This document shows, one piece after another, positions 5,305 through 55,351 of a DNA stretch of 64,000 nucleotides. The first letter of the stretch is position 1, and each line of letters begins with the position of its first letter. The translations under genes were made by a program, and so were the position numbers. Source of the stretch: an uncultured virus (IMG/VR IMGVR_UViG_2061766007_000800) (taxonomy: Duplodnaviria > Heunggongvirae > Uroviricota > Caudoviricetes); IMG/VR virus record IMGVR_UViG_2061766007_000800, one strand, 5' to 3'. The notes beneath the pieces are model-generated. The model saw nothing but the letters and a program-made list of their open reading frames with translations. It was not told where the DNA came from and made no database searches.

Positions 5305-5380
5305 AAACTGTTTGAAAATTTAAAAAATTTTTGGTATAATATTTATACAATAAAAAATTAAGAAAGAGAGGGTTTAGCTT

Positions 5381-5548
5381 ATGGCTTTTGTTGTTAATTA
5401 TGTTGATGACGATTACAGAAAGCACATTTGTGTTGCACAGGATATGAGAGAAGTTAATTTTATCATAAAGAGATTTGATACAGTTTCTTTCTATAAAGCA
5501 TCTGACAAAGAAGCTAAAGCTCTAAACCCCAAGATAGAAAGATACTAA
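5381..5548 (+). CDS. small hypothetical protein (55 aa)
   Basis: ATG after promoter and GAGG; open to TAA. Confidence 0.55.
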   Translation: MAFVVNYVDDDYRKHICVAQDMREVNFIIKRFDTVSFYKASDKEAKALNPKIERY

Positions 5549-5676
5549 TTGATAATTTTAAAAAATTATTATNNNNNNNNNNNNNNNNNNGTTCCTTTAA
5601 GGTCTTTTCCTTTTCTTTATAATTTGGTTGCAAAGTAGCTCAGATTGGATACCTGTACAACAAAGTCCAATATATC

Positions 5677-5750
5677 GGGAACATAGCTCAGCTGGTGGTA
5701 GCATGCGACTGTTAATCGCAGGGTCGAGGGTTCGAGTCCCTCTGTTCCCG
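5677..5750 (+). tRNA. tRNA-Asn(GTT)
   Basis: Cloverleaf; TGCGA-CTGTTAA-TCGCA; GGTTCGAGTCC. Confidence 0.9.
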
Positions 5751-5972
5751 CTCTGAAATATAGGCTTGAGGGAACTGCAGATTACCTCTCCCTAAGTAAG
5801 ACGGTTTATATCTTAGCCTGTAACCAAAATGAAGATACCGAAGTTGTGAGGTGAATCAATCCTGTTTAGGTGCCTTCGAGAAGGAAAATGAAAATGCATC
5901 CGAAACTGACAACCGCGTAGTGCTGTTAGGTGACTACACACCTTTAAGAGATGGTAACTCTATGTAGTATTT

Positions 5973-6043
5973 GCCCTCATAATACAACGGTAGTATGGCT
6001 GCCTTGTAAGCAGTTCATGGCGGTTCGAATCCGTCTGAGGGCT
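5973..6043 (+). tRNA. tRNA-Thr(TGT)
   Basis: GCCCTCA/TGAGGGC; loop CTTGTAA. Confidence 0.9.
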
Positions 6044-6240
6044 TTAAAGATAACAATATTGACTATGTGTATTCTAGATACTACACATTGGAGAGACTCG
6101 CCTGAGAAAAAAGGTGCTTTGAAGGATGATAAGCATAATTAAATGTCACCCGATTGTCGACTAAGAATCTGCGCTATACAAAGGGGAGCGCAAAAAGAGT
6201 TGAAGTTATCTTTTATTCTATTAATGTAGTATTAATATAA

Positions 6241-6314
6241 CGCGGAGTCGTCTGGAGAGGTACCAGCCCACCCTCATAAGGTGTGTAACGGGGGTTCGAA
6301 TCCCCTCTCCGCTA
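6241..6314 (+). tRNA. tRNA-Met(CAT), initiator-like C1 mismatch
   Basis: CGCGGAG/CTCCGCT; loop CTCATAA; lacks the triple G-C anticodon stem of classic fMet. Confidence 0.8.
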
Positions 6315-6424
6315 TTCCCCTCAGAGGATAGAAACAAGATTTGAGTATAGTCCAAAGTAACTCACTTTGTGCGCACAGAGGAAGTTGGAGTGACGACCAA
6401 CACTTGTAGGCTATCGAGGGTTTT

Positions 6425-6498
6425 CGCCCTTTCTTCTAACAGGACTAGGATAGCGCCCTTTCACGGCGCTGATAGGAGTTCGAGCCTCCTAAGGGTGA
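6425..6498 (+). tRNA. tRNA-Glu(TTC)
   Basis: GCGCC-CTTTCAC-GGCGC; cloverleaf. Confidence 0.9.
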
Positions 6499-6571
6499 TT
6501 CCACATTAAAAGTGGAATAACAACAAGAAATGCTCTCTCCGCACCTACACGGATTATATGTAGGTAATATC

Positions 6572-6645
6572 TGCCCCGAGGTCAAATTGGTAGAGGCGCC
6601 ACACTGTCACTGTGGAGATAGCGGGTTCAAGTCCCGTCGGGGTAG
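6572..6645 (+). tRNA. tRNA-Asp(GTC)
   Basis: CCACA-CTGTCAC-TGTGG; cloverleaf. Confidence 0.9.
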
Positions 6646-6743
6646 CTACTGTAAATAATCGAAAGGTCGTTCTCGTGGGGCGACGTCGGGGGTAAAAGCC
6701 TGTGGTAGTGTAGGTGTCAGCACATCGATTGTTACAGGTTTAT

Positions 6744-6818
6744 GGGGGTATAGTTCTAATTGGCGAGAACAGGTCTTTTGCAAGGACACGGTTGAGGGTT
6801 CAAGTCCCTCTACTTCCA
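6744..6818 (+). tRNA. tRNA-Ala(TGC)
   Basis: GGGGGTA/TACTTCC with G3:U70; loop TTTGCAA. Confidence 0.9.
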
Positions 6819-6825
6819 TTTATTT

Positions 6826-6910
6826 GGGCGGGTAGACCGTTAAGGAGGCGGGCGGGACTGTAAATCCCGTGGCATTATGCACCTAGTGGGTTCGATTCCC
6901 TCTCCGCCCA
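6826..6910 (+). tRNA. tRNA-Tyr(GTA)
   Basis: CGGGA-CTGTAAA-TCCCG; long variable arm. Confidence 0.9.
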
Positions 6911-6914
6911 TTAT

Positions 6915-7005
6915 GCCTGTTTAAGCCTAATTGGTAAGGCAGCGCCCTGCTAAGGCGTGAGTAACCGCTTTAAGTGGTGTACTGGTTCAAGTCCAGTAGC
7001 AGGCG
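6915..7005 (+). tRNA. tRNA-Ser(GCT)
   Basis: GCGCC-CTGCTAA-GGCGT; long variable arm. Confidence 0.9.
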
Positions 7006-7252
7006 TGTACTCTNNNNNNNNNNNNNNNNNNNNNNNNNNNNNNNNNNNNNNNNNNNNNNNNNNNNNNNNNNNNNNNNNNNNNNNNNNNNNNNNNNNNNNT
7101 ATTACACCTATTAAAACAAGAAAATGGGTAAAGAAAAATGGCTGTTCCTATATTGGAACAAGTGAAAATAGTAAATGGGATTTTTATTGGTTTGGTAACT
7201 TTTCAACAGGTTATCAAGTTAAAGTTAGAAATTGGTAGAAAGGAGAACCAAT

Positions 7253-7741
7253 ATGGGTAGAGATATTTATATGCATATAGTTGAAAATGGTTGCGTTTTA
7301 AAGCGTGATATTTTTGAAGGCAGATGCTCTGATTGGTTTGACAATCTATCTAATAATGGGTGGGACCATAGCTATGACCATCTGCCTGTTGAGTATGGAA
7401 TTTCCCCAGAGAGTTCAGAAGAACTTAAAAAAGAATATAATACAGAAGAAGGATATTATGATTTTCGTTATATTAAAGTATCTGACTTCTTAAATTGGTT
7501 TGAAAAATATCGTCCTGACATTGAAGCGGGTTGGGTAACAACTTACGAAAAGTGGCTTATCGAAAAGAAGGGGTATGTCCCTGAAGATGTAAAACATTAT
7601 CTTGACAAAGAAGATGATATAAGAGATATGCACTTTATAGAGTTTGAAAACCCTTATGATTGCTCGAAATGGCTTTATAATTATCTTAAAGATAATGAAA
7701 TATCATTACAAGCAGACATAACCTATTGTTTTAATTGGTAG
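7253..7741 (+). CDS. hypothetical phage protein (MGRDIYMH.. family)
   Basis: AGGAG RBS, ATG at 7253. Confidence 0.7.
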   Translation: MGRDIYMHIVENGCVLKRDIFEGRCSDWFDNLSNNGWDHSYDHLPVEYGISPESSEELKKEYNTEEGYYDFRYIKVSDFLNWFEKYRPDIEAGWVTTYEKWLIEKKGYVPEDVKHYLDKEDDIRDMHFIEFENPYDCSKWLYNYLKDNEISLQADITYCFNW

Positions 7742-7828
7742 TTAAAAGGCGATATGAAAATATCGCCTTTATTTTTTTAAAAAAATTTGTTATAATTATT
7801 ATAGAAAATAAGAAAAGAGGTAATAAAT

Positions 7829-8104
7829 ATGACATTAAAAGAGTGGTTAGAAGTAATTGATGTAGTTGGTTTAAATGTTAGATTATGGTCGCAGTATTTC
7901 AAAGAGTATTCAGAAGAAGACGATGATGAACCCTTATGGGAAGGCTGGTCAATGAACATTCCTTGGGTTTATATTGATAAGAAGATTGGTATTGTTAATG
8001 AAAATACAGGTGTTATTGAAAAAGAAGATGCTATCTATTTTATAACAGAGAAGAATGAATATGGTGTTGATGTTATTTGGGCAAATATTAATATAGTAGA
8101 ATAA
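7829..8104 (+). CDS. hypothetical protein
   Basis: Promoter, RBS and ORF. Confidence 0.7.
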   Translation: MTLKEWLEVIDVVGLNVRLWSQYFKEYSEEDDDEPLWEGWSMNIPWVYIDKKIGIVNENTGVIEKEDAIYFITEKNEYGVDVIWANINIVE

Positions 8105-8106
8105 AT

Positions 8107-8191
8107 GGCGGGGTACCTTAGTGGGGAGGAGGCGCAGTCTTGAAAACTGTCGGGCTTAACCGCTCTGTGAGTTCGAATCTCACCCCCGTCG
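8107..8191 (+). tRNA. tRNA-Ser(TGA)
   Basis: GCAGT-CTTGAAA-ACTGT; long variable arm. Confidence 0.9.
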
Positions 8192-8194
8192 CTT

Positions 8195-8267
8195 GACGAT
8201 GTAGCCAAAATGGTAAAGGCAGCGGACTGCAACTCCGCGATTGTGAGTTCGAGTCTCTCCGTCGTCT
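8195..8267 (+). tRNA. tRNA-Cys(GCA)
   Basis: GCGGA-CTGCAAC-TCCGC. Confidence 0.9.
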
Positions 8268-8353
8268 TAAGGCATAGAACAAATGAGCCTCCTATGTACA
8301 AAGGTAATTAAAAAAATGTGTAGCAAGGGTGGATGACTTAAGCTGCCTGACAT

Positions 8354-8427
8354 ACTGGTGTATTTCAGTTGGTTAGAAGACTCGTCTGATAAGCGAGTTG
8401 CCGCAGGTTCGAATCCTGCCGCCAGTA
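8354..8427 (+). tRNA. tRNA-Ile(GAT)
   Basis: CTCGT-CTGATAA-GCGAG. Confidence 0.9.
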
Positions 8428-8497
8428 TAACAAGGTTTAACTTGTTATTTTTCATAGGCGTATTCCCCTTTCCTGTGAGGGTTATCACAGGAATTAT

Positions 8498-8574
8498 GGC
8501 TTGGTAGCTCAGTTTGGTCAGAGCGGTGGACTGAAAATCCATGTCTGTCGAAAGTTCGATTCTTTCCCGAGCCA
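8498..8574 (+). tRNA. tRNA-Phe(GAA)
   Basis: GTGGA-CTGAAAA-TCCAT. Confidence 0.9.
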
Positions 8575-8643
8575 TTCAGAAACACGGACAAGGCTTAGGC
8601 GCATGAAACAAAGCGGTGAGATGCGAGTGGTGATTTCTGATTT

Positions 8644-8714
8644 GTCCGTATAATATAATGGCAGTATGTTTGGCTTCCACCCAGACGGTGTGGGTTCAAA
8701 TCCCACTACGGACT
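8644..8714 (+). tRNA. tRNA-Gly(TCC)
   Basis: TTTGG-CTTCCAC-CCAGA. Confidence 0.9.
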
Positions 8715-8822
8715 CTATTGCAAGATAGATGCAACATAGATTCTACTTGATTAGGTGAACAATGATAAACCTATATATTCGAGGTCAGCCAACCGCCTTT
8801 GCAACAAAGAAGTTGGTAATTT

Positions 8823-8904
8823 GCACTCATGGTGAAATTGGCAAACACATCGCATTTAAGCTGCGACGCCTAACGGCTTGAGGGTTCAAGTCCCTCTGAG
8901 TGTA
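8823..8904 (+). tRNA. tRNA-Leu(TAA)
   Basis: TCGCA-TTTAAGC-TGCGA; long variable arm. Confidence 0.9.
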
Positions 8905-9180
8905 CTATGAGGAATTGCAAACCTCGTTTGACGGAGTAATTAATCGTTATGAAACTCTACTTTCATACAAACAAACAAAAGGAAGATAGAGTAGATAGAA
9001 TTAGTAGTGAGACCAATCATCGGGGATAGAATAGTTCAAATTGGACAAAGAGAACACACTACTTTAATGGACTTGCTTAGTAAGAGGAAATGAACGGCGG
9101 GAAAAGTTCTATCTGGTGGAGAGGAATAAAAACATATTTTTGCACAGGGTATGTTTTTGTGCAGCCTCTCTATCACTTAT

Positions 9181-9260
9181 GGGCTTGTGGTGAAATCGGC
9201 ATACACGCGGGTTTAAGATACCCGTCCGCGAGGGTGAGGGTTCAAGTCCCTCCAAGCTCA
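9181..9260 (+). tRNA. tRNA-Leu(AAG)
   Basis: CGGGT-TTAAGAT-ACCCG; Leu-type D arm and variable arm. Confidence 0.85.
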
Positions 9261-9265
9261 CTTGT

Positions 9266-9381
9266 TGCATAGTGGCGGAATGGCAGTAGACGCAGACAAT
9301 CCCCATCAGGTGGATGGATAAGGCTAGCATGTCGTAGGAGCAAGACAACTATATGTAAGGTTCGAATCCTTACCTATGCAA
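9266..9381 (+). ncRNA. Leu-like tRNA scaffold with expanded anticodon arm
   Basis: TGCATAG/CTATGCA acceptor, Leu-type D arm, GTAAG-GTTCGAATC-CTTAC T arm; about 30-nt insert in place of the anticodon loop. Confidence 0.7.
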
Positions 9382-9509
9382 TAATTTGAATTTTTAAAAA
9401 TTTTTTGATATAATATTATTATAAGATATGGAAAGGAAGTCTAAAAATGAGACGAAAGCATTACAGACGAAAACGTCAAACACAATTTAATAATGTAAAA
9501 TTTGAACGA

Positions 9510-9581
9510 GCGTCTGTGGTAGACAAGTAATACACTCGACTTTTAATCGAGAGCATGTGGGGGCAGTACCCATCAGGCGCA
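9510..9581 (+). tRNA. tRNA-Lys(TTT), non-canonical T loop
   Basis: CTCGA-CTTTTAA-TCGAG; T loop GGCAGTA. Confidence 0.8.
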
Positions 9582-9591
9582 TCAAATATGC

Positions 9592-9664
9592 GCTTGTGTA
9601 ACTCAAATGGAAGAGTGGCGGTCTCTTAAATCGTAAGGTGTGGGTTCAAATCCCACTACAAGCA
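9592..9664 (+). tRNA. tRNA-Lys(CTT)
   Basis: GCGGT-CTCTTAA-ATCGT. Confidence 0.9.
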
Positions 9665-9668
9665 CTCT

Positions 9669-9741
9669 ATCCCCATAGGCTAATGGATAGTACCTCTCGG
9701 CTACGAACCGAAAAGTGAGAGTTCGAATCTCTCTGGGGATA
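9669..9741 (+). tRNA. tRNA-Arg(ACG)
   Basis: TCGG-CTACGAA-CCGA; ATCCCCA/TGGGGAT. Confidence 0.9.
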
Positions 9742-9745
9742 TTTT

Positions 9746-9825
9746 AGTTAAGACACTTACAGCAATTTAACAACAAAAACAATTTTCTGATAAAAAATGT
9801 GGTTTAGTTAAGGTGTCTTGTTACT
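9746..9825 (+). ncRNA. small structured RNA, ACAGCAAT motif copy 1 (Y-RNA-like candidate)
   Basis: AAGACAC(9750-56)/GTGTCTT(9813-19) closing stem, TACAGCAAT, inner hairpin ATTTT-CTGATAA-AAAAT. Confidence 0.6.
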
Positions 9826-9838
9826 ACAAATTAATAAG

Positions 9839-9902
9839 GTTAAGACTCATACAGCAATCTTTATATTTCTTATTTGGCAAGAAGAAGACAAAGAGTCTTG
9901 TA
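9839..9902 (+). ncRNA. small structured RNA, ACAGCAAT motif copy 2
   Basis: AAGACTC(9842-48)/GAGTCTT(9893-99) with a compensatory change versus copy 1; inner hairpin TTCTT-ATTTGGC-AAGAA. Confidence 0.6.
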
Positions 9903-9986
9903 TATTTTCCTTTTATTATATACCTTTTAATTTATAGTAACTAATTGTAGTTTAATTAAAAGTATATTTTAGGAGGAATTTTTATT

Positions 9987-11456
9987 ATGAATTTTTCAGA
10001 TGCTATGAATTTTGAATTAACAAGAGGAAAGACTTGGAATGGTGCGGAGTGTCTCACTTCTACATCTAATGCTTGTCTTGACTTTTTTGGTAGAATAGGT
10101 GCTATGAGACAGGCTTCTGTAAATGAAAAGCTTGATTTATTCGACGCTGCATATCGTGAAGACCCTGACTCAGCTATGAAGTTGTTATTCTATACAAGAG
10201 ATATTCGTGGTGGTTATGGTGAGCGTGATGCTTTCAATGAGATATTCGCGCACCTCGCCGCAACACATAAGGATTCTGTAATCAAGAACATACCTAATGT
10301 TCTTGAATATGGTAGAGCAAAGGACTTATACTCTTTAATAGGCACACCCGCAGAGTCTGCTATGTGGTCTTTTATTAGAGAACAATTTGAGCTTGATAAG
10401 GCTAATCTTGTACAGGGTAAGCCTGTATCTTTATTAGCAAAGTGGCTTGCAACACCTAACGCATCTTCACCTAAGACTGCGGAATTGGGTGTATTAACTG
10501 CTAAGAAGCTCGGTTATAATTTTAAGTCTATGGCTCAGTACAGAAAGATATTGGTAGCTTTGAGAAAGGCTATTGATATTCCTGAAGCAAAGATGTCAAC
10601 AGACAGATGGGACGAAATCGTTTACGAGAATGTTCCCTCTAAGTGTAACATTCAGAATAGAGAAGCTTTTAAGCGTCATGACGGTGTTCGTTATGAGAAT
10701 TTCATTTCACAGGTTCAGTCTGGTGAAGTGAAGATGAATATGGCAACTGCTAATCCTTGCGATATAATGCAAAAGGTAGTTAATGGTGATAATGGTGTAG
10801 AGATTAACACTATGTGGAAGTCTTTACCTAAGATACCTACTAAGGCTCTTGCTGTTGTAGATACTTCTGGTTCTATGACTTGGGGTACTATAAATGGTGT
10901 AAAGCCTATTACAGTAGCAGTTGCTCTTGGTATCTACTTTGCTCAAAATAATGTTGGTCAGTTTAAGAATAAGTTTTTCACTTTTTCAAATAGACCTTCT
11001 CTTATTGAGATTAAGGGTAATACCCTTGGACAGATGTATGAACAGATTCGTAGAGCGGACTGGGGTAACTCTACTAACCTTGAAGCTGTCTTTGATAAGA
11101 TACTTGAAATGGGTATTAACTACCATATCGCTCCAGAAGATATGCCTGAGTCTATCTGTGTTATTTCAGATATGCAGATAAATGACTATGGTTATCATAA
11201 TGGTGGTTTAACATTTACTGATGTGATGAAGAGAAGATATGAGCAGGCAGGCTATAAGTTACCTCATGTAATTTATTGGAATGTTAATGCTATGAATCCT
11301 ACTTTCCATGCAGCAAAGTCTGATAATGGTGTTTCATTAGTATCAGGCTACTCACCTAATATTATGAAGCAAGTTATGGATAACATAGGCAAGACTCCTC
11401 TTGACCTTATGAATGACATATTAACTTCAGATAGATATAAGAATATAACAGCATAA
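9987..11456 (+). CDS. Ro60/TROVE-like helical domain plus vWA protein (DUF2828-like)
   Basis: LDFF, LFYTRDIRGGYGER, AKWL, YRK, VPS..AF.RHD; MIDAS VDTSGSM, STNL, ISDMQ, YWNV, LVSGYS. Confidence 0.8.
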   Translation: MNFSDAMNFELTRGKTWNGAECLTSTSNACLDFFGRIGAMRQASVNEKLDLFDAAYREDPDSAMKLLFYTRDIRGGYGERDAFNEIFAHLAATHKDSVIKNIPNVLEYGRAKDLYSLIGTPAESAMWSFIREQFELDKANLVQGKPVSLLAKWLATPNASSPKTAELGVLTAKKLGYNFKSMAQYRKILVALRKAIDIPEAKMSTDRWDEIVYENVPSKCNIQNREAFKRHDGVRYENFISQVQSGEVKMNMATANPCDIMQKVVNGDNGVEINTMWKSLPKIPTKALAVVDTSGSMTWGTINGVKPITVAVALGIYFAQNNVGQFKNKFFTFSNRPSLIEIKGNTLGQMYEQIRRADWGNSTNLEAVFDKILEMGINYHIAPEDMPESICVISDMQINDYGYHNGGLTFTDVMKRRYEQAGYKLPHVIYWNVNAMNPTFHAAKSDNGVSLVSGYSPNIMKQVMDNIGKTPLDLMNDILTSDRYKNITA

Positions 11457-11480
11457 TAGGGTGCATTAGCACCCTTATAT

Positions 11481-11553
11481 GCCTCCGTAGTCTAATGGAT
11501 AGGCAACGCTCTTCTAAAGCGTATAAATGCAGGTTCGAGTCCTGTCGGAGGTA
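11481..11553 (+). tRNA. tRNA-Arg(TCT)
   Basis: ACGCT-CTTCTAA-AGCGT. Confidence 0.9.
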
Positions 11554-11555
11554 CT

Positions 11556-11639
11556 GTGGCTATGGCAGAATTGGCTATGCACCAGATTGTGGCTCTGGGA
11601 GAGAAATCTCATATATGGGTTCGAGCCCCATTGGTCACA
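11556..11639 (+). tRNA. tRNA-His(GTG) with long variable arm
   Basis: CCAGA-TTGTGGC-TCTGG; extra GAGA-GAAA-TCTC arm. Confidence 0.85.
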
Positions 11640-11642
11640 CTT

Positions 11643-11773
11643 GGCGGAGTAATGTAATTGGTAACATGCTTTTTTTCTTTTACGTGTCTTGTAAAAGACA
11701 TAAACAGCAATTACTTTTTAGAAAATTCACACTTGTCCCGTGAGTAATGTAGGTTCGAATCCTACCTCCGTCT
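11643..11773 (+). ncRNA. tRNA scaffold carrying a permuted ACAGCAAT motif (copy 3)
   Basis: GGCGGAG/CTCCGTC, D arm, T arm GTAGG-TTCGAAT-CCTAC; insert GTGTCTT-GTAA-AAGACAT-AAACAGCAAT. Confidence 0.7.
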
Positions 11774-11778
11774 TATTT

Positions 11779-11853
11779 GCTGCTCGTCCTCGACGGTATT
11801 TTGGGGAATCGGCTTATATCCGATGACACAAGGTTCGACTCCTTGGGGCAGTA
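11779..11853 (+). tRNA. tRNA-Ile(TAT)
   Basis: ATCGG-CTTATAT-CCGAT; GCTGCTC/GGGCAGT; atypical D arm. Confidence 0.75.
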
Positions 11854-11945
11854 TTACTTTTTGATNNNNNNNNNNNNNNNNNNNNNNNNNNNNNNNATAT
11901 ATGTAAGATAAAAAAAGAAAAGAAAATGTATAGAAAGAGGTTAAT

Positions 11946-12428
11946 ATGACAAAGATATATTTAGCGGGTTCTTGCGCCCCCGAACAGAGAAATTTAATGG
12001 TTGCAATAGCAAAGTATTTAAGAAGTTTTAAGAATATTGGAGTATATTGTCCTTTTGAATTAGAAGTTCCTAATGCTTGGGATATTAGTCAAGAGGAATG
12101 GTCAGAGAAAGTATTTATGGCGGACAAGGACGCTATTGACAACTGTGATGTTTTCCTTATGATTTCTCAAGGTCGTATCAGTTCAGCTGGCACGAATTGG
12201 GAACAGGGATATGCATATGGTATAGGTAAATATATTGGTGTTATTCAAATTACCGATACACCGACAAGTTTAATGACTTATAGTTCTGCTGATTGTTTTT
12301 GTAATGTTAAAACAACTGATAGGTCTAATCTTCTGAATGAAATATCAGTTGCTATTGAAAAAGTTATGCTTTGTTATGACAAGCCTTGGGTTCAAGGTAA
12401 AGATAAATGTTTAACAGTCTTAACTTAG
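11946..12428 (+). CDS. nucleoside 2-deoxyribosyltransferase-like protein
   Basis: KIYLAG, D..AID.CD, SAGT.WE.GYA. Confidence 0.8.
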   Translation: MTKIYLAGSCAPEQRNLMVAIAKYLRSFKNIGVYCPFELEVPNAWDISQEEWSEKVFMADKDAIDNCDVFLMISQGRISSAGTNWEQGYAYGIGKYIGVIQITDTPTSLMTYSSADCFCNVKTTDRSNLLNEISVAIEKVMLCYDKPWVQGKDKCLTVLT

Positions 12429-12509
12429 GAGTATAGCGAAGCGGTCAAACGCGCTGGTCTCCAAAACCAGTCCTTAAAAGGTTCGTGGGTTCGAATCCTA
12501 CTGCTCCTG
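12427..12509 (+). tRNA. tRNA-Trp(CCA) with long variable arm
   Basis: CTGGT-CTCCAAA-ACCAG; extra CCT-TAAA-AGG arm. Confidence 0.85.
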
Positions 12510-12622
12510 TAGGCGCACATTGTGCGTGAGTCGCTTTTGCGGCGGTGGTCAATATTCGATTTTAGCACTTTTCTGTGAGCAGAGACCACCATTCAAATAA
12601 ACAGGTCAAGAAAAGTGCATAA

Positions 12623-12696
12623 CGGAGTATAGGACAGTTTGGTAGTCCGCATCGCTTGGGACGATGAGGTCGGGGGTTCGAATCCCTCTACTCCGA
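12623..12696 (+). tRNA. tRNA-Pro(TGG)
   Basis: CATCG-CTTGGGA-CGATG; CGGAGTA/TACTCCG. Confidence 0.9.
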
Positions 12697-16080: not shown

Positions 16081-16234
16081 CTAATTGATAATTTAAAAAA
16101 TTTTTGATATAATATTTATAGAAAATAAGAAATCGCTCAATGATATTTTAAATGTCTTGACTCGCAAAACTGCTATGTTTCCAATATTGAGATAGTTAGG
16201 GAATAAAAGCCGAGGGAATACCTAACAAACCCTT

Positions 16235-16840
16235 TCTTGTACCTTGAAAACTTAAAAAGATAGAACCTATTGATAAACGCCAACCAACATTGGCGGTAGG
16301 AAATTCTGAATAGGCTACCGATTCTACCGAAGGATACTTTGGTCATGGCGGTTGCTCTTAAAGGTAACGATAAGAACAGGAGGTTGAGACCCAAAGCCTA
16401 AGGAATTGTACTTTATTTATCGTAGTATAGCACAGGAAGTGTGTCGGGGGAACAATAGAAAGTTAATCGAAAGATTAGCCTCTCCAAGTTAGGTGGAAAC
16501 AGGTGGTGCTGTCGCAGACCTTGGAAATACCAATAATTCCCTTTGCGGTGAAGCCAAGAAATTGGTGTATAAGACATGCAAGAAACCTCTGAGTAGCAGA
16601 AAGCGCAAATAACAAGATGATGGAAGATGAAAATGGTCAGTAGTCTTTGAATTTCTGAAAGTAACTGTGAAAGGTGCTGGGTAGACATTCCCGTCAAGGC
16701 AATACGGACTTTGGTCAGGGTAAGAATGCATAAGGGTAGCTGCTTATGCACAGACTTATTCTCCTTGTAGTGTAATAATATTAAAGATAAATAAAGTAGG
16801 TTGAAGAACCCAAATCTGTTTAAGTTTTTAAAGTACAAGA
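16235..16840 (+). ncRNA. large structured ncRNA, ROOL-like (about 610 nt)
   Basis: About 22-bp terminal stem 16235-16256/16819-16840; TACTTTATTTATC/GATAAATAAAGTA; recalled ROOL-like 3' motif GGGTAGC..CAGACTTATTCTCC; own promoter 16085-16113. Confidence 0.65.
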
Positions 16841-16918: not shown

Positions 16919-16994
16919 CTCTTAGGTTTCTTAAAGAAACCTGACATAATAACCCTCTTTTCTTTATCGGGCATTATGCCCACATATATCTTAC

Positions 16995-17026
16995 AAGACG
17001 CAACTGAAAATGTTGCGTCTTTTTTT
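16995..17026 (+). terminator. intrinsic terminator closing the RNA island
   Basis: AAGACGCAAC-loop-GTTGCGTCTT followed by a T run. Confidence 0.8.
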
Positions 17027-17117
17027 GTATAAAATTTTCTGCGGCGGGTGAACGCACGTGAGCCCGTAATCCCGAAACCGAAATTTGGTCTCCACGAATC
17101 TTTTCCCGCATTTTTAA

Positions 17118-35167: not shown

Positions 35168-35677
35168 ATGAAAATCTTAATAGTTTTATGCGGATGTCCT
35201 GCATCTGGTAAGTCAACTTGGGTAAAAGAACAGGTTGCAACAGCAAGCAAATATCTTAATATAGAAGTGGTATCAAGAGATTTAATCCGCTTTGGACTTT
35301 TATGCGAAGGCGAAGATTATTTTGCAAAAGAAAAAGAAGTCTTTAAGATATATTGCAAGAGAATATCAGAACTTTTGGCGGACAATACTACTGATGTAGT
35401 TATCGCTGACGCGACACATATCAATAAAAAATCAAGAGCAAAACTATTTAAGAATATTTCTATTCCTAAAGATTGTAAACTTGAAGCAGTATGTTTTGAA
35501 ACACCTTTAGAGGTATGTTTAGAACGTAATGCGGAAAGGGAAGGTTTAGCAAAAGTTCCTGACGAAGCGATATATGGTTTATATAGTGACTATGAGCGTC
35601 CGACAGGCGCTGAAGGTTTTGAAATTATTAGAACTTATGATGGAACATATAAAACTTTTCAATTAAATAAGAGATAA
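35168..35677 (+). CDS. polynucleotide-kinase-like P-loop kinase (AAA_33)
   Basis: GCPASGKST, SRD.IR, IADATH, C.ERN..R. Confidence 0.8.
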   Translation: MKILIVLCGCPASGKSTWVKEQVATASKYLNIEVVSRDLIRFGLLCEGEDYFAKEKEVFKIYCKRISELLADNTTDVVIADATHINKKSRAKLFKNISIPKDCKLEAVCFETPLEVCLERNAEREGLAKVPDEAIYGLYSDYERPTGAEGFEIIRTYDGTYKTFQLNKR

Positions 35678-39845: not shown

Positions 39846-40415
39846 ATGGAAAGAGAAAAGAAAATTTATTTTACTTCAGATTTACATTTTGGACACGATA
39901 GAGAGTTTATTTGGAGACCTCGTGGTTTTAACAATGTATATGAAATGAATAATACAATTATTAAAAATTGGAATGAAGTAGTAGATGTAGATGATGATGT
40001 TTATGTTCTTGGTGATTTAATGTTGGGTGATAACTGGGCAGGTAGAAAATGTCTTACTAATCTTAAAGGTAACATTCATATCATCCTTGGTAACCACGAT
40101 AGCGAAGCCCGCGTAGATATTTATAGAAATTTATATAATGTAGTTGAAGTGTGTTATGCAACTCAGATTAAAATTGACGGATGGAATTTCTATCTTTCAC
40201 ATTATCCTACTATGACTTGCAATCTTGAAAAAGAATTTAGTAAGAATTGTTTACTTAATCTTTATGGTCATACTCATCAGAAAGACAACTTCTATAATGG
40301 ACTTCCATTTTGTTATCATGTAGGACTTGATAGTCATAATAATCAACTTGTTTCTTTTGAACAGGTTATTGAAGATATTACAAAAGAAGTAAAAAATTGT
40401 GAATATTATTTGTAA
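39846..40415 (+). CDS. calcineurin-like metallophosphoesterase
   Basis: SDLHFGH, LGD, GNHD, HYP, GHTH. Confidence 0.88.
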   Translation: MEREKKIYFTSDLHFGHDREFIWRPRGFNNVYEMNNTIIKNWNEVVDVDDDVYVLGDLMLGDNWAGRKCLTNLKGNIHIILGNHDSEARVDIYRNLYNVVEVCYATQIKIDGWNFYLSHYPTMTCNLEKEFSKNCLLNLYGHTHQKDNFYNGLPFCYHVGLDSHNNQLVSFEQVIEDITKEVKNCEYYL

Positions 40416-54796: not shown

Positions 54797-55351
54797 ATGG
54801 CACACCCTTGTATATGTTCAGTATGCGGTAAAAAATTTGATAGAGATATAGTTCAGGCGGTAAAAAGCGGAGCAAGGCGTTATGCGCATCAGACTTGTAT
54901 GCCAGACGGAGAAATTGTGCCTTTGCCGCCACCTACAGAAAAGAAGCCTAAAGTAAAGAAAGAAAGTAAAGAAGACCCAGAGATGAAATTGTTAAAAGAC
55001 ACGATAAAAGACATCTTTGGAGATAAGGCGAATTGGGCAACTTGTATAAAACAAGTTAAGACATATACAGCACCGCCTTATGATTATAGTTTATCTGGTA
55101 TTAGGAAGAGTTTAGTTTATTTTTATCAGATAAAGAATAACCCTATTGAGAAAGCAAATGGAAGTATTGCGATAGTTCCATATATATATAAAGATGCATA
55201 TGACTATTTTTATGAGTTGTTTCTTTTGGAAAATCAATTTGAAAATAAAGTAGTCGAAGAAAGAGAAGAGAGAGAGATAGTTATTCCTCCTCCAAAGTCA
55301 AGAAGAAAAATAAAACTATTCAAATTATGGAGTGATGACGAGAATGAATAA
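54797..55351 (+). CDS. Zn-finger replication-module protein
   Basis: CSVC..H..C; adjacent to the helicase. Confidence 0.55.
   Translation: MAHPCICSVCGKKFDRDIVQAVKSGARRYAHQTCMPDGEIVPLPPPTEKKPKVKKESKEDPEMKLLKDTIKDIFGDKANWATCIKQVKTYTAPPYDYSLSGIRKSLVYFYQIKNNPIEKANGSIAIVPYIYKDAYDYFYELFLLENQFENKVVEEREEREIVIPPPKSRRKIKLFKLWSDDENE

Follow-up and report, generated by a model that had tools for sequence, protein, structure and literature searches.

Phage RNAs with a conserved handle and tRNA-derived modules, encoded near genes for DUF2828 proteins of predicted Ro60 fold

The locus and its presumed protein partner

The DNA analyzed here, which we refer to as the window, is a stretch of 64,000 nucleotides from an uncultured virus of the Caudoviricetes (IMG/VR record IMGVR_UViG_2061766007_000800). 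It is a large phage-like genome piece in which ARAGORN and Rfam identify a row of tRNA genes (positions 5677-12696), a transfer-messenger RNA and a ROOL RNA. Between the end of a tRNA-Arg(acg) gene (9742) and an open reading frame (ORF) at 9987-11456 lie two copies of one motif, which are members of a widespread phage RNA family. The family architecture comprises a 7-bp closing helix, a bulge of sequence NNACAGCAA, a 3' G and a variable module derived from tRNA. We call the constant part the handle: the helix, a 9-nt bulge that follows its 5' strand and ends in a near-invariant ACAGCAA, and a conserved G after its 3' strand.

Both copies are exact matches to the motif pattern on the + strand, 87-237 nt upstream of the ORF. 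Copy 1 (9750..9820) starts 8 nt past the end of tRNA-Arg(acg). It consists of the handle 5' strand (9750-9756), the bulge TTACAGCAA (9757-9765), a variable region of 47 nt (9766-9812), the handle 3' strand (9813-9819) and the conserved G (9820). The same parts in copy 2 (9842..9900) are the 5' strand at 9842-9848, the bulge ATACAGCAA at 9849-9857, a variable region of 35 nt at 9858-9892, the 3' strand at 9893-9899 and the G at 9900. The two copies start with xAGACNC, two free bases and ACAGCAA, and end with GNGTCTx' and G; their handle helices differ by one compensatory change from A-T to T-A. The exact pattern occurs twice in the 64 kb, versus an expected 0.18 occurrences. With the covariance models described below, whose E-values are rough, copy 1 scores 46.8 bits (model R1, E 1.6e-9) and 47.9 bits (model R2), and copy 2 scores 54.7 bits (model R1, E 1.2e-11). 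A further pattern match at 55056-55074 was rejected as a chance occurrence, having three mismatches and lying inside an ORF (54797-55351). A minus-strand model match at 16986-17030 (22 and 19.6 bits, E 0.007-0.03) is probably also due to chance.

The ORF at 9987..11456 (+) is the presumed partner gene. It encodes a 489-aa protein with the Pfam domains DUF2828 and DUF7788, and it belongs to PHROG 850, annotated as 'RNA-binding protein'. An AlphaFold2 model of the protein (predicted local distance difference test score 89.8; predicted template-modeling score 0.89) was compared with the PDB by using Foldseek. The top 12 matches were all Ro60 structures, from frog, human, Deinococcus and the Thermus phage phiLo, the best being 1yvr (E 6.9e-10, TM score 0.60). 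The matches are full-length, for example those to 1yvr, 2i91, 9kop and 2nvo, and nothing else was comparable. The model comprises a predicted HEAT ring and a vWA domain, and the protein carries a DxSxS motif (DTSGS, residues 292-296), which we take to be a form of the metal-ion-dependent adhesion site motif. In an alignment of relatives, D292 and S296 are invariant, and S294 is nearly so.

In sequence searches, Pfam gave DUF7788 and DUF2828 only, with no match to TROVE; phmmer with the single protein found nothing in the PDB; and a profile search against the PDB reached Ro60 only marginally (E 0.55 and 0.77). The structural model predicts a Ro60-like fold for this DUF2828 protein, which is the candidate for binding the adjacent handles. 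In the literature that we searched, we found no RNA partner described for DUF2828 proteins.

The handle and its linkage to DUF2828 genes

A pattern scan of a collection of viral contigs found at least 121 loci. Among the matches listed, the two free helix positions are complementary in 110 of 123 (about 37% would be expected by chance, G-U pairs included), the next pair outward is complementary in 100 of 116 distinct instances, and the base after the helix is G in 109 of these 116. Model R1 was built from the 116 pattern instances, and model R2 from matches collected independently of the pattern. In protein-anchored matches, as aligned by fitting to the covariance model, 99.6% of helix cells are paired and six of the seven pairs change on both sides; none of 500 shuffles reached this, and no slid register of the helix alignment comes close to the observed pairing. 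A closely related viral contig, whose protein is 75% identical, also has two copies before the gene, with compensatory changes in the helix. Many loci derive from few metagenomes and from related phages or clades, and only identical variable regions were removed; the locus counts are therefore not independent events.

Rfam 15 holds no family for the handle motif. A search of the window at gathering thresholds, together with a search of positions 9400-12000 at E <= 5, gave only a 20-bit, chance-level match there.

Linkage to the protein was assessed with loci gathered through protein alignments and not through the RNA pattern. One set comprised 80 viral loci, and another, gathered with a closer protein alignment, comprised 80 genome-contig loci, mostly from Lachnospiraceae metagenome-assembled genomes (rumen and gut). 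At E <= 0.01, model R1 made 83 matches in 46 of the viral loci, and model R2 added 10 further loci, bringing the total to 56 of 80; in the genome contigs, R2 made 68 matches in 48 loci. The strand was invariably that of the DUF2828 gene (83/83, 21/21 and 68/68; 172 of 172 model matches in the 198 loci searched). None of the 96 viral-locus matches that were tabulated by position lies inside the gene, and tRNA genes occur within 2.5 kb in 58 of 80 loci.

When the pattern was the starting point, a DUF2828 gene was found within the short flank in 35 of 122 loci, among those listed. In 10 further contigs with the motif, eight have the gene elsewhere, roughly 4 to 110 kb from the copies; it is present in all five contigs that are at least 90% complete, and the two contigs without it are 35% and 52% complete. 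The background frequency of the gene is 710 in 50,697 deposited phage records.

Those 710 records include phages of Listeria, Staphylococcus, Bacillus, Enterococcus, Mycobacterium, Campylobacter, Escherichia and Salmonella. Handle matches adjoin the gene in Staphylococcus phage S-CoN_Ph2 (two copies), Listeria phage P100 (two) and Bacillus phage PK-3 (six, among tRNA genes), as well as in Enterococcus phage EFDG1, Mycobacterium phage BigCheese and Campylobacter phage CP30A. In Felixounavirus phage JH2, a weak match (19.6 bits, E 0.03) follows the DUF2828 gene at a distance of 330 nt. Just after the gene of S-CoN_Ph2 (our locus L128), an annotated 29-aa 'hypothetical protein' at 5513-5602 coincides with a strong handle-RNA match (50.7 bits); judged from this overlap, it is probably a mis-called ORF.

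Elements found so regularly beside one gene could be cis-acting leader structures or operators of the DUF2828 mRNA, by which the protein would repress or stabilize its own message. Consistent with this explanation, 42 of the 96 tabulated matches have their end in the 150 nt before the gene, and the rows of one clade (ending GTGTCCTGAAAGGAGA) show the handle 3' strand running directly into the ribosome-binding site. In locus L001, a promoter-like site is followed by two copies and then by the gene, and in the window no terminator-like site was found between copy 2 and the DUF2828 gene. However, the same 96 matches include 20 located downstream of the gene and 13 whose distance upstream of it exceeds 600 nt, and whole contigs show copies about 4 to 110 kb away, in one contig on the opposite strand. 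Phages also have several copies, as many as six in PK-3, with tRNA genes in between; moreover, modules are tRNA bodies, and permuted forms have their own tRNA ends. We consider a cis-regulatory role unlikely as the explanation of the family. By analogy with Y RNAs processed from operon transcripts, the cis-leader and free-RNA readings can coexist.

The promoter-like site of the window is at 9386..9414 (+), with TTGAAT, a 17-nt spacer, TATAAT and a TG before the -10 element, and is the best consensus match found, at 10 of 12 positions. As judged from this consensus match, it would start a unit comprising a tRNA-like element, tRNA-Lys, tRNA-Arg, copy 1, copy 2 and the DUF2828 gene. The number of promoter-like sites in the tRNA region does not exceed that in shuffled sequences. 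The site is one of five + strand copies, at 5312, 7768, 9386, 14933 and 16085, of a 44-nt promoter-like repeat in which an A/T-rich spacer separates TTGA.. from TATAAT. These repeats punctuate the tRNA region as if it were made up of several transcription units.

Other features of the region are recorded here as observations. Some 5 kb beyond the DUF2828 gene, and after the repeat at 16085-16128, lies a full-length ROOL RNA (16242-16830, +), which scores 277 bits where the gathering score is 99. The element at 9510-9581 (+) is tRNA-like (Rfam, 45.5 bits; no ARAGORN call); it has an unusual-looking T region and an anticodon arm reading CTCGA / CTTTTAA / TCGAG, of Lys-UUU type. The segment at 9263-9377 (+), with no Rfam or ARAGORN call, contains a T-arm-like GTAAGGTTCGAATCCTTAC and complementary ends (TGCATAG ... 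CTATGCA), and may be another long tRNA-like RNA. The window contains 14 runs of N (for example, 7014-7099 and 11866-11896), some of them inside the tRNA region, which could hide more tRNA or handle RNA genes.

The variable module

Pooling the variable regions of the pattern matches, of the protein-anchored viral loci and of the named phages gave 189 distinct ones, 173 of them short (14-55 nt) and 16 long (67-109 nt). A T arm is present in 14 of the 16 long modules, and several of these, inspected by eye, are permuted tRNA bodies with a T arm, a closed acceptor stem and a D arm, which is the layout of the Y RNA relative YrlA. In the Lachnospiraceae set, 23 of 27 modules of intermediate size have a T arm, and many read as tRNA bodies without an acceptor stem, in which the handle closes a unit made up of a D-loop remnant, an anticodon arm and a T arm.

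An initial annotation of the window, made from the sequence alone, had proposed that the motif RNAs join a constant protein-binding handle to a variable anticodon loop. Short modules were accordingly searched for hairpins with stems of at least 4 bp, a threshold of our choosing, and compared with 200 dinucleotide shuffles. The modal loop length is 7 nt. A 7-nt loop of the form CT...AA occurs in 40 of the 173 short modules, versus a shuffle mean of 1.0 and a maximum of 4. The looser forms YT...R. and.T...R. occur in 54 (shuffle mean 10.8, maximum 22) and 65 (mean 18.7, maximum 31) of the 173, respectively, and minimum-free-energy folds of the 173 contain 61 loops of 7 nt (shuffle mean 12.6). 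The protein-anchored sets considered separately contain CT...AA loops in 13 of 46 modules (shuffles 0.23) and in 17 of 39 (shuffles 0.22).

In 29 of the 40 modules with CT...AA, the run of stem pairs stops at exactly 5 bp, and the spacers between handle and stem are mostly 10-12 nt per side. In an alignment anchored on the loop, all five stem pairs change on both sides, among rows preselected for at least four of the five pairs. Because RNAalifold applied to 40 anticodon-type members recovered the handle only, the anticodon stem was counted with a structure that we specified. Compared with shuffles, the full set of 7-nt hairpin loops is enriched in C32 (39% versus 16%), U33 (49% versus 31%), A37 (54% versus 38%) and A38 (54% versus 38%). 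G37 accompanies G36 (10/22) and not U36 (5/67), which is also the rule in real bacterial tRNAs.

The anticodons of the 40 clear loops are UUU (15), GUU (11), GCU (4), UGA (4), UUA (2), GAU (2), GUA (1) and UCC (1). Thus, diversity of anticodons, as had been anticipated, is found only in uneven form, with UUU and GUU making up 26 of 40. Lys-UUU accounts for 15 of these 40 mimic loops, versus 3 of 314 neighboring tRNA genes at the same kind of loci, 16 of which are Asn-GUU (tRNA counts not de-replicated). A few mimic loops have anticodons that would read stop codons (UUA, UCA), namely those in the relatives L036, L065 (CTTTAAA) and L354:2297-2376 and one CTTCAAA loop in a third set of loci; they are too few for interpretation.

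Loops of other kinds, 3-18 nt in length, are found in about two thirds of the short modules (119 of 173 when YT...R. is the test). One recurring type contains AGGCGAA, which holds the CGAA of canonical Ro60-binding motifs (for example, L017, L127:2560-2632, L160, L162 and L124:1845-1927), and another contains UGGG (for example, L005, L067, L090 and L325:482-556). The proposal of a constant handle with a variable, tRNA-derived module is upheld by these data, but the loops are not consistently anticodon-like. Similarly, 7-nt loops with Y32, U33 and R37 were expected among homologues; 7 nt is indeed the modal length and 54 of 173 modules show the full signature, but the remaining 119 do not. For between about one quarter and one third of the short members, the data support a module that is a faithful anticodon arm.

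In the window, copy 1 carries an anticodon-arm copy at 9782..9798 (+), with a 5-bp stem ATTTT/AAAAT (A9782-T9786 paired with A9794-T9798) and the loop CTGATAA (C9787-A9793), corresponding to anticodon GAU and A37. The tRNA-Ile(gat) identified by ARAGORN at 8353-8428 has the same loop, on a 5-bp stem that includes one G-T pair. Copy 2 has an anticodon-arm-like hairpin at 9867..9883 (+), with stem TTCTT (9867-9871) / AAGAA (9879-9883) and loop ATTTGGC (9872-9878), that is, A32, U33, UUG, G37 and C38. Position 32 is thus A and not a pyrimidine, and G37 after G36 follows the pattern seen across the family. The 5-bp stem with a 7-nt loop is therefore present in copies 1 and 2, and both hairpins were already recognized in the initial annotation, whose description we confirm: the 5-bp stem of the first and its loop shared with tRNA-Ile(GAT), and the U33-like T, TTG triplet and purine at 37 of the second. 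With regard to Y32, U33 and R37, copy 1 has the full signature (C, U, A), and copy 2 (A, U, G) departs from it at position 32.

A contig from a metatranscriptome library, corresponding to window positions 9668-9773, joins tRNA-Arg to copy 1 of a close relative, in which the stem and loop size are kept; such library contigs are not proof of transcription. The loop of this relative is CTGTTAA (Asn-type) and differs from CTGATAA (Ile-type) by one base, at the middle anticodon position.

Alternatively, the hairpins might be decaying remnants of tRNA genes that were duplicated within tRNA arrays, or chance structures in A+T-rich DNA, with selection acting on the handle only. Copies 1 and 2 by themselves fold no better than shuffles (RNAfold z -0.77 and +0.29, respectively), so the case for the hairpins rests on their relatives. 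The unrelated loops, of widely differing length, in some two thirds of short modules and the A32 of the copy 2 loop would also fit this explanation. It does not readily account for the 40 CT...AA loops where 1.0 was expected and at most 4 were seen in 200 shuffles, for the change on both sides of five of five stem pairs around a fixed loop (in rows selected for four of five pairs), for the maintenance of the rule linking positions 36 and 37, or for the close relative that keeps the stem and 7-nt loop of copy 1 while reading CTGTTAA. We regard decay or chance as very unlikely.

A third copy has a different arrangement. Copy 3 (11643..11773, +) is a rotated version of the other two: a tRNA-like RNA with its own, normal ends that carries the handle as an internal hairpin. 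It scores 43.1 bits against the Rfam tRNA model (gathering score 29), and its acceptor, D and T arms align to the model while the middle, including the anticodon arm, is unaligned. The handle forms a circularly permuted hairpin between the D arm and the next hairpin, in which the 3' strand (11684-11690) and the G (11691) come first, followed by a loop, the 5' strand (11695-11701) and AAACAGCAA (11702-11710). ARAGORN does not call this RNA, and its fold has a z-score of -4.4. A scan for handles closed by a small loop found 112 loci, 69 of which pass a helix check; 41 distinct viral loci show the permuted design. About 30 rotated loci lie inside tRNA-like genes with normal ends, the handle being between the D arm and the next hairpin, and in these relatives the hairpin after the insert can carry CTGTTAA.

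In the place of the anticodon arm, copy 3 has a hairpin at 11727..11743 (+), with TCAC (11727-11730) paired to GTGA (11740-11743) and the loop ACTTGTCCC. The hairpin, which had been noted as containing CTTGTCC, is present. It can be read as 4 bp with a 9-nt loop or as the 7-nt loop CTTGTCC (U33, UGU, C37) closed by an A.C mismatch, so that in place of a 5-bp stem there are 4 bp and an A.C pair, and C, U, C departs from the signature at position 37. In view of C37 and the mismatched closing pair, the suggestion that this loop is an anticodon mimic is not supported in the form proposed.

Members such as copy 3 might instead be working tRNAs in which the handle is a removed or tolerated, intron-like insert, the short copies being by-products or remnants. 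The intact acceptor, D and T arms of copy 3, with 43.1 bits against a threshold of 29, speak for this explanation, as do loops such as CTGTTAA retained after the insert in relatives and the gene for an RtcB 'tRNA splicing ligase' located 1.3 kb from the DUF2828 gene of Listeria phage P100. By contrast, an acceptor stem is missing from copies 1 and 2 and from most other members, and copy 3, which has C37 and the A.C closing pair, receives no ARAGORN call. Also, no known splicing motif was noticed, no dedicated intron search having been run, and RtcB is absent from the other 90 loci examined. A function as working tRNAs could cover copy-3-type members at most, and we consider it highly improbable.

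Comparison with Ro60 particles and a possible role

The closest parallel is that of bacterial and phage Y RNAs of the YrlA type and their partner Rsr/Ro60 (RF02553; Chen et al. 2014, PMC4201824). Small RNAs there likewise lie beside a gene for a Ro60-fold protein and on its strand, often several in a row, and a terminal helix is likewise joined to a tRNA-mimicking module. The long handle RNAs share with YrlA the order of T arm, closed acceptor stem and D arm, and the long elements of EFDG1 give sub-threshold Rfam matches to YrlA (43 and 34 bits versus a gathering score of 69). This YrlA-type tRNA domain is found in the long relatives and is absent from copies 1 and 2, which neither Rfam nor ARAGORN calls as tRNA. 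Further differences are that the DUF2828/DUF7788 protein has no Pfam TROVE match, that many handle RNAs display an anticodon arm, the part that YrlA is without, and that rotated and acceptor-less tRNA layouts occur among handle RNAs.

Ro60-like proteins have also been reported from phages. In the accessible text on Thermus phage phiLo (PMC12135203), a phage Ro60-fold protein has two Y-like RNA genes, Yrl1 and Yrl2, just upstream. Structures of the phiLo Ro60, 9kop and 9l5y, rank among the highest in the Foldseek comparison described above. Unlike the system described here, phiLo has a canonical TROVE Ro60 and RNAs with a CGAA motif, and the available part of that report makes no mention of an anticodon-arm module. 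The PhageMaP preprint (PMC11482910) reports that gp130 of Escherichia phage Bas63, a Ro60-like protein encoded next to a row of tRNA genes, acts against the ppl defence system, and its authors surmise that Y RNAs are among the 'tRNAs'. The portion of the preprint available does not identify an RNA partner, and gp130 is compared here as a Ro60-like protein. In the literature outside subscription journals and supplements (for example, Table S2 of Chen et al. 2014), we found no description of the handle, of Y-like RNAs with anticodon arms, of acceptor-less tRNA bodies on a handle or of the rotated tRNA-with-handle form.

The co-location and shared strand of the family with DUF2828 genes, together with the predicted Ro60 fold, are the reasons that copies 1 and 2 are best read as genes for small noncoding RNAs of about 60-70 nt, putative analogues of Y RNAs with a new handle. 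We consider it probable that they are handle RNAs that are partnered with the Ro60-like protein and display parts of tRNAs. By analogy, the system is best read as one that works like Ro60 with Y RNAs, the handle, the displayed anticodon arms and the acceptor-less and rotated forms being what sets it apart. The design, which recurs in many phages, points to handle RNAs and DUF2828 proteins as components of an RNA-protein particle not previously described.

Several observations weigh against this reading. The Ro60-bound stem of YrlA has the motif GNCGAA(N)G (Chen et al. 2014, PMC4201824, accessible text), whereas the handle has NNACAGCAA and the 3' G and is without that motif. A cmscan search at E <= 5 over 9400-12000 found no YrlA match on the window copies. 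Because of these two results, the grounds for proposing that the RNAs dock on the DUF2828 protein are adjacency and fold, and not a known binding site. At E <= 0.01, there is no match in 24 of 80 viral and 32 of 80 genome-contig loci, and phages KVP40 and Fnu1 have no model match at E <= 0.1. A tblastn search with the RtcB of P100 found this protein in P100 only among 91 loci. Positions 9807-9954 are not covered by any contig from the three RNA-library runs, or from the one run of unspecified kind, that were examined. The many loops unlike anticodon loops, the fitting of the protein-anchored alignments to the model and the relatedness of the loci, all noted above, count on the same side.

The handle, with its covarying helix, ACAGCAA bulge and 3' G, is the constant part, and an exchangeable tRNA-derived module lies inside it. 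This module is a faithful anticodon arm in copy 1 (5 bp, CUGAUAA) and an anticodon-arm-like hairpin in copy 2 (AUUUGGC); relatives have an anticodon arm, in most cases of Lys-UUU or Asn-GUU type, or else an acceptor-less tRNA body, a permuted YrlA-like body or another hairpin. In the mechanism that we propose by analogy with Ro60 and Y RNA, the DUF2828 ring protein would dock on the handle, and the module would recruit a factor that recognizes the matching part of a tRNA.

The most speculative step is that the recruited factors may be anticodon-directed host enzymes, such as the anticodon nucleases of antiphage systems. The particle might then soak up, sense or hand over such enzymes and so protect translation during infection. 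The initial annotation had likewise suggested a decoy or sensor for host anticodon nucleases, or else a guide for repair. A role of the particle in dealing with attacks on tRNAs is a tentative suggestion on our part, and the anticodon-enzyme step taken alone is similarly doubtful. PrrC and the PARIS effector AriB target tRNA, specifically Lys-UUU.

The window also encodes, all on the + strand, three possible RNA-end-healing proteins: a cyclic-phosphate-processing receiver domain (PF20274, 4546-4920), a polynucleotide-kinase-like P-loop kinase (PHROG 505, 35168-35674) and a phosphoesterase (PHROG 547, 39846-40412). No RNA ligase was recognized among the 50 window ORFs of at least 110 aa that were scanned. 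TROVE proteins are noted as RNA-repair platforms in jumbo phages by Iyer et al. (PMC7824862). The tRNA neighbors, the RNA-end-healing genes, the reported action of gp130 against a defence system and the repair platforms of jumbo phages fit the anticodon-enzyme step without proving it.

The handle motif gives DUF2828 proteins candidate RNA ligands that are open to direct test, and it provides an assignment for a number of gaps left without annotation and for at least one short 'hypothetical protein', the one called in S-CoN_Ph2. Judging from the modules, it seems that Ro60-type particles can be made to display any part of a tRNA, the anticodon arm included, which would tie Ro60 biology to the question of how phages withstand tRNA-cleaving defences; the skew toward Lys-UUU yields a concrete hypothesis about such defences. 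Phages with DUF2828 might carry a re-targetable panel of anticodon-arm baits, with which the particle would trap, report or dispose of a defence nuclease, a possibility that we raise with low confidence. A single anticodon loop, in most cases that of Lys-UUU or Asn-GUU, would be displayed per handle RNA, and the panel could be retargeted by single-base changes, as suggested by GAU here versus GUU in the close relative. If true, such a bait panel would be an RNA-based anti-defence system alongside the tRNA arrays of phages.

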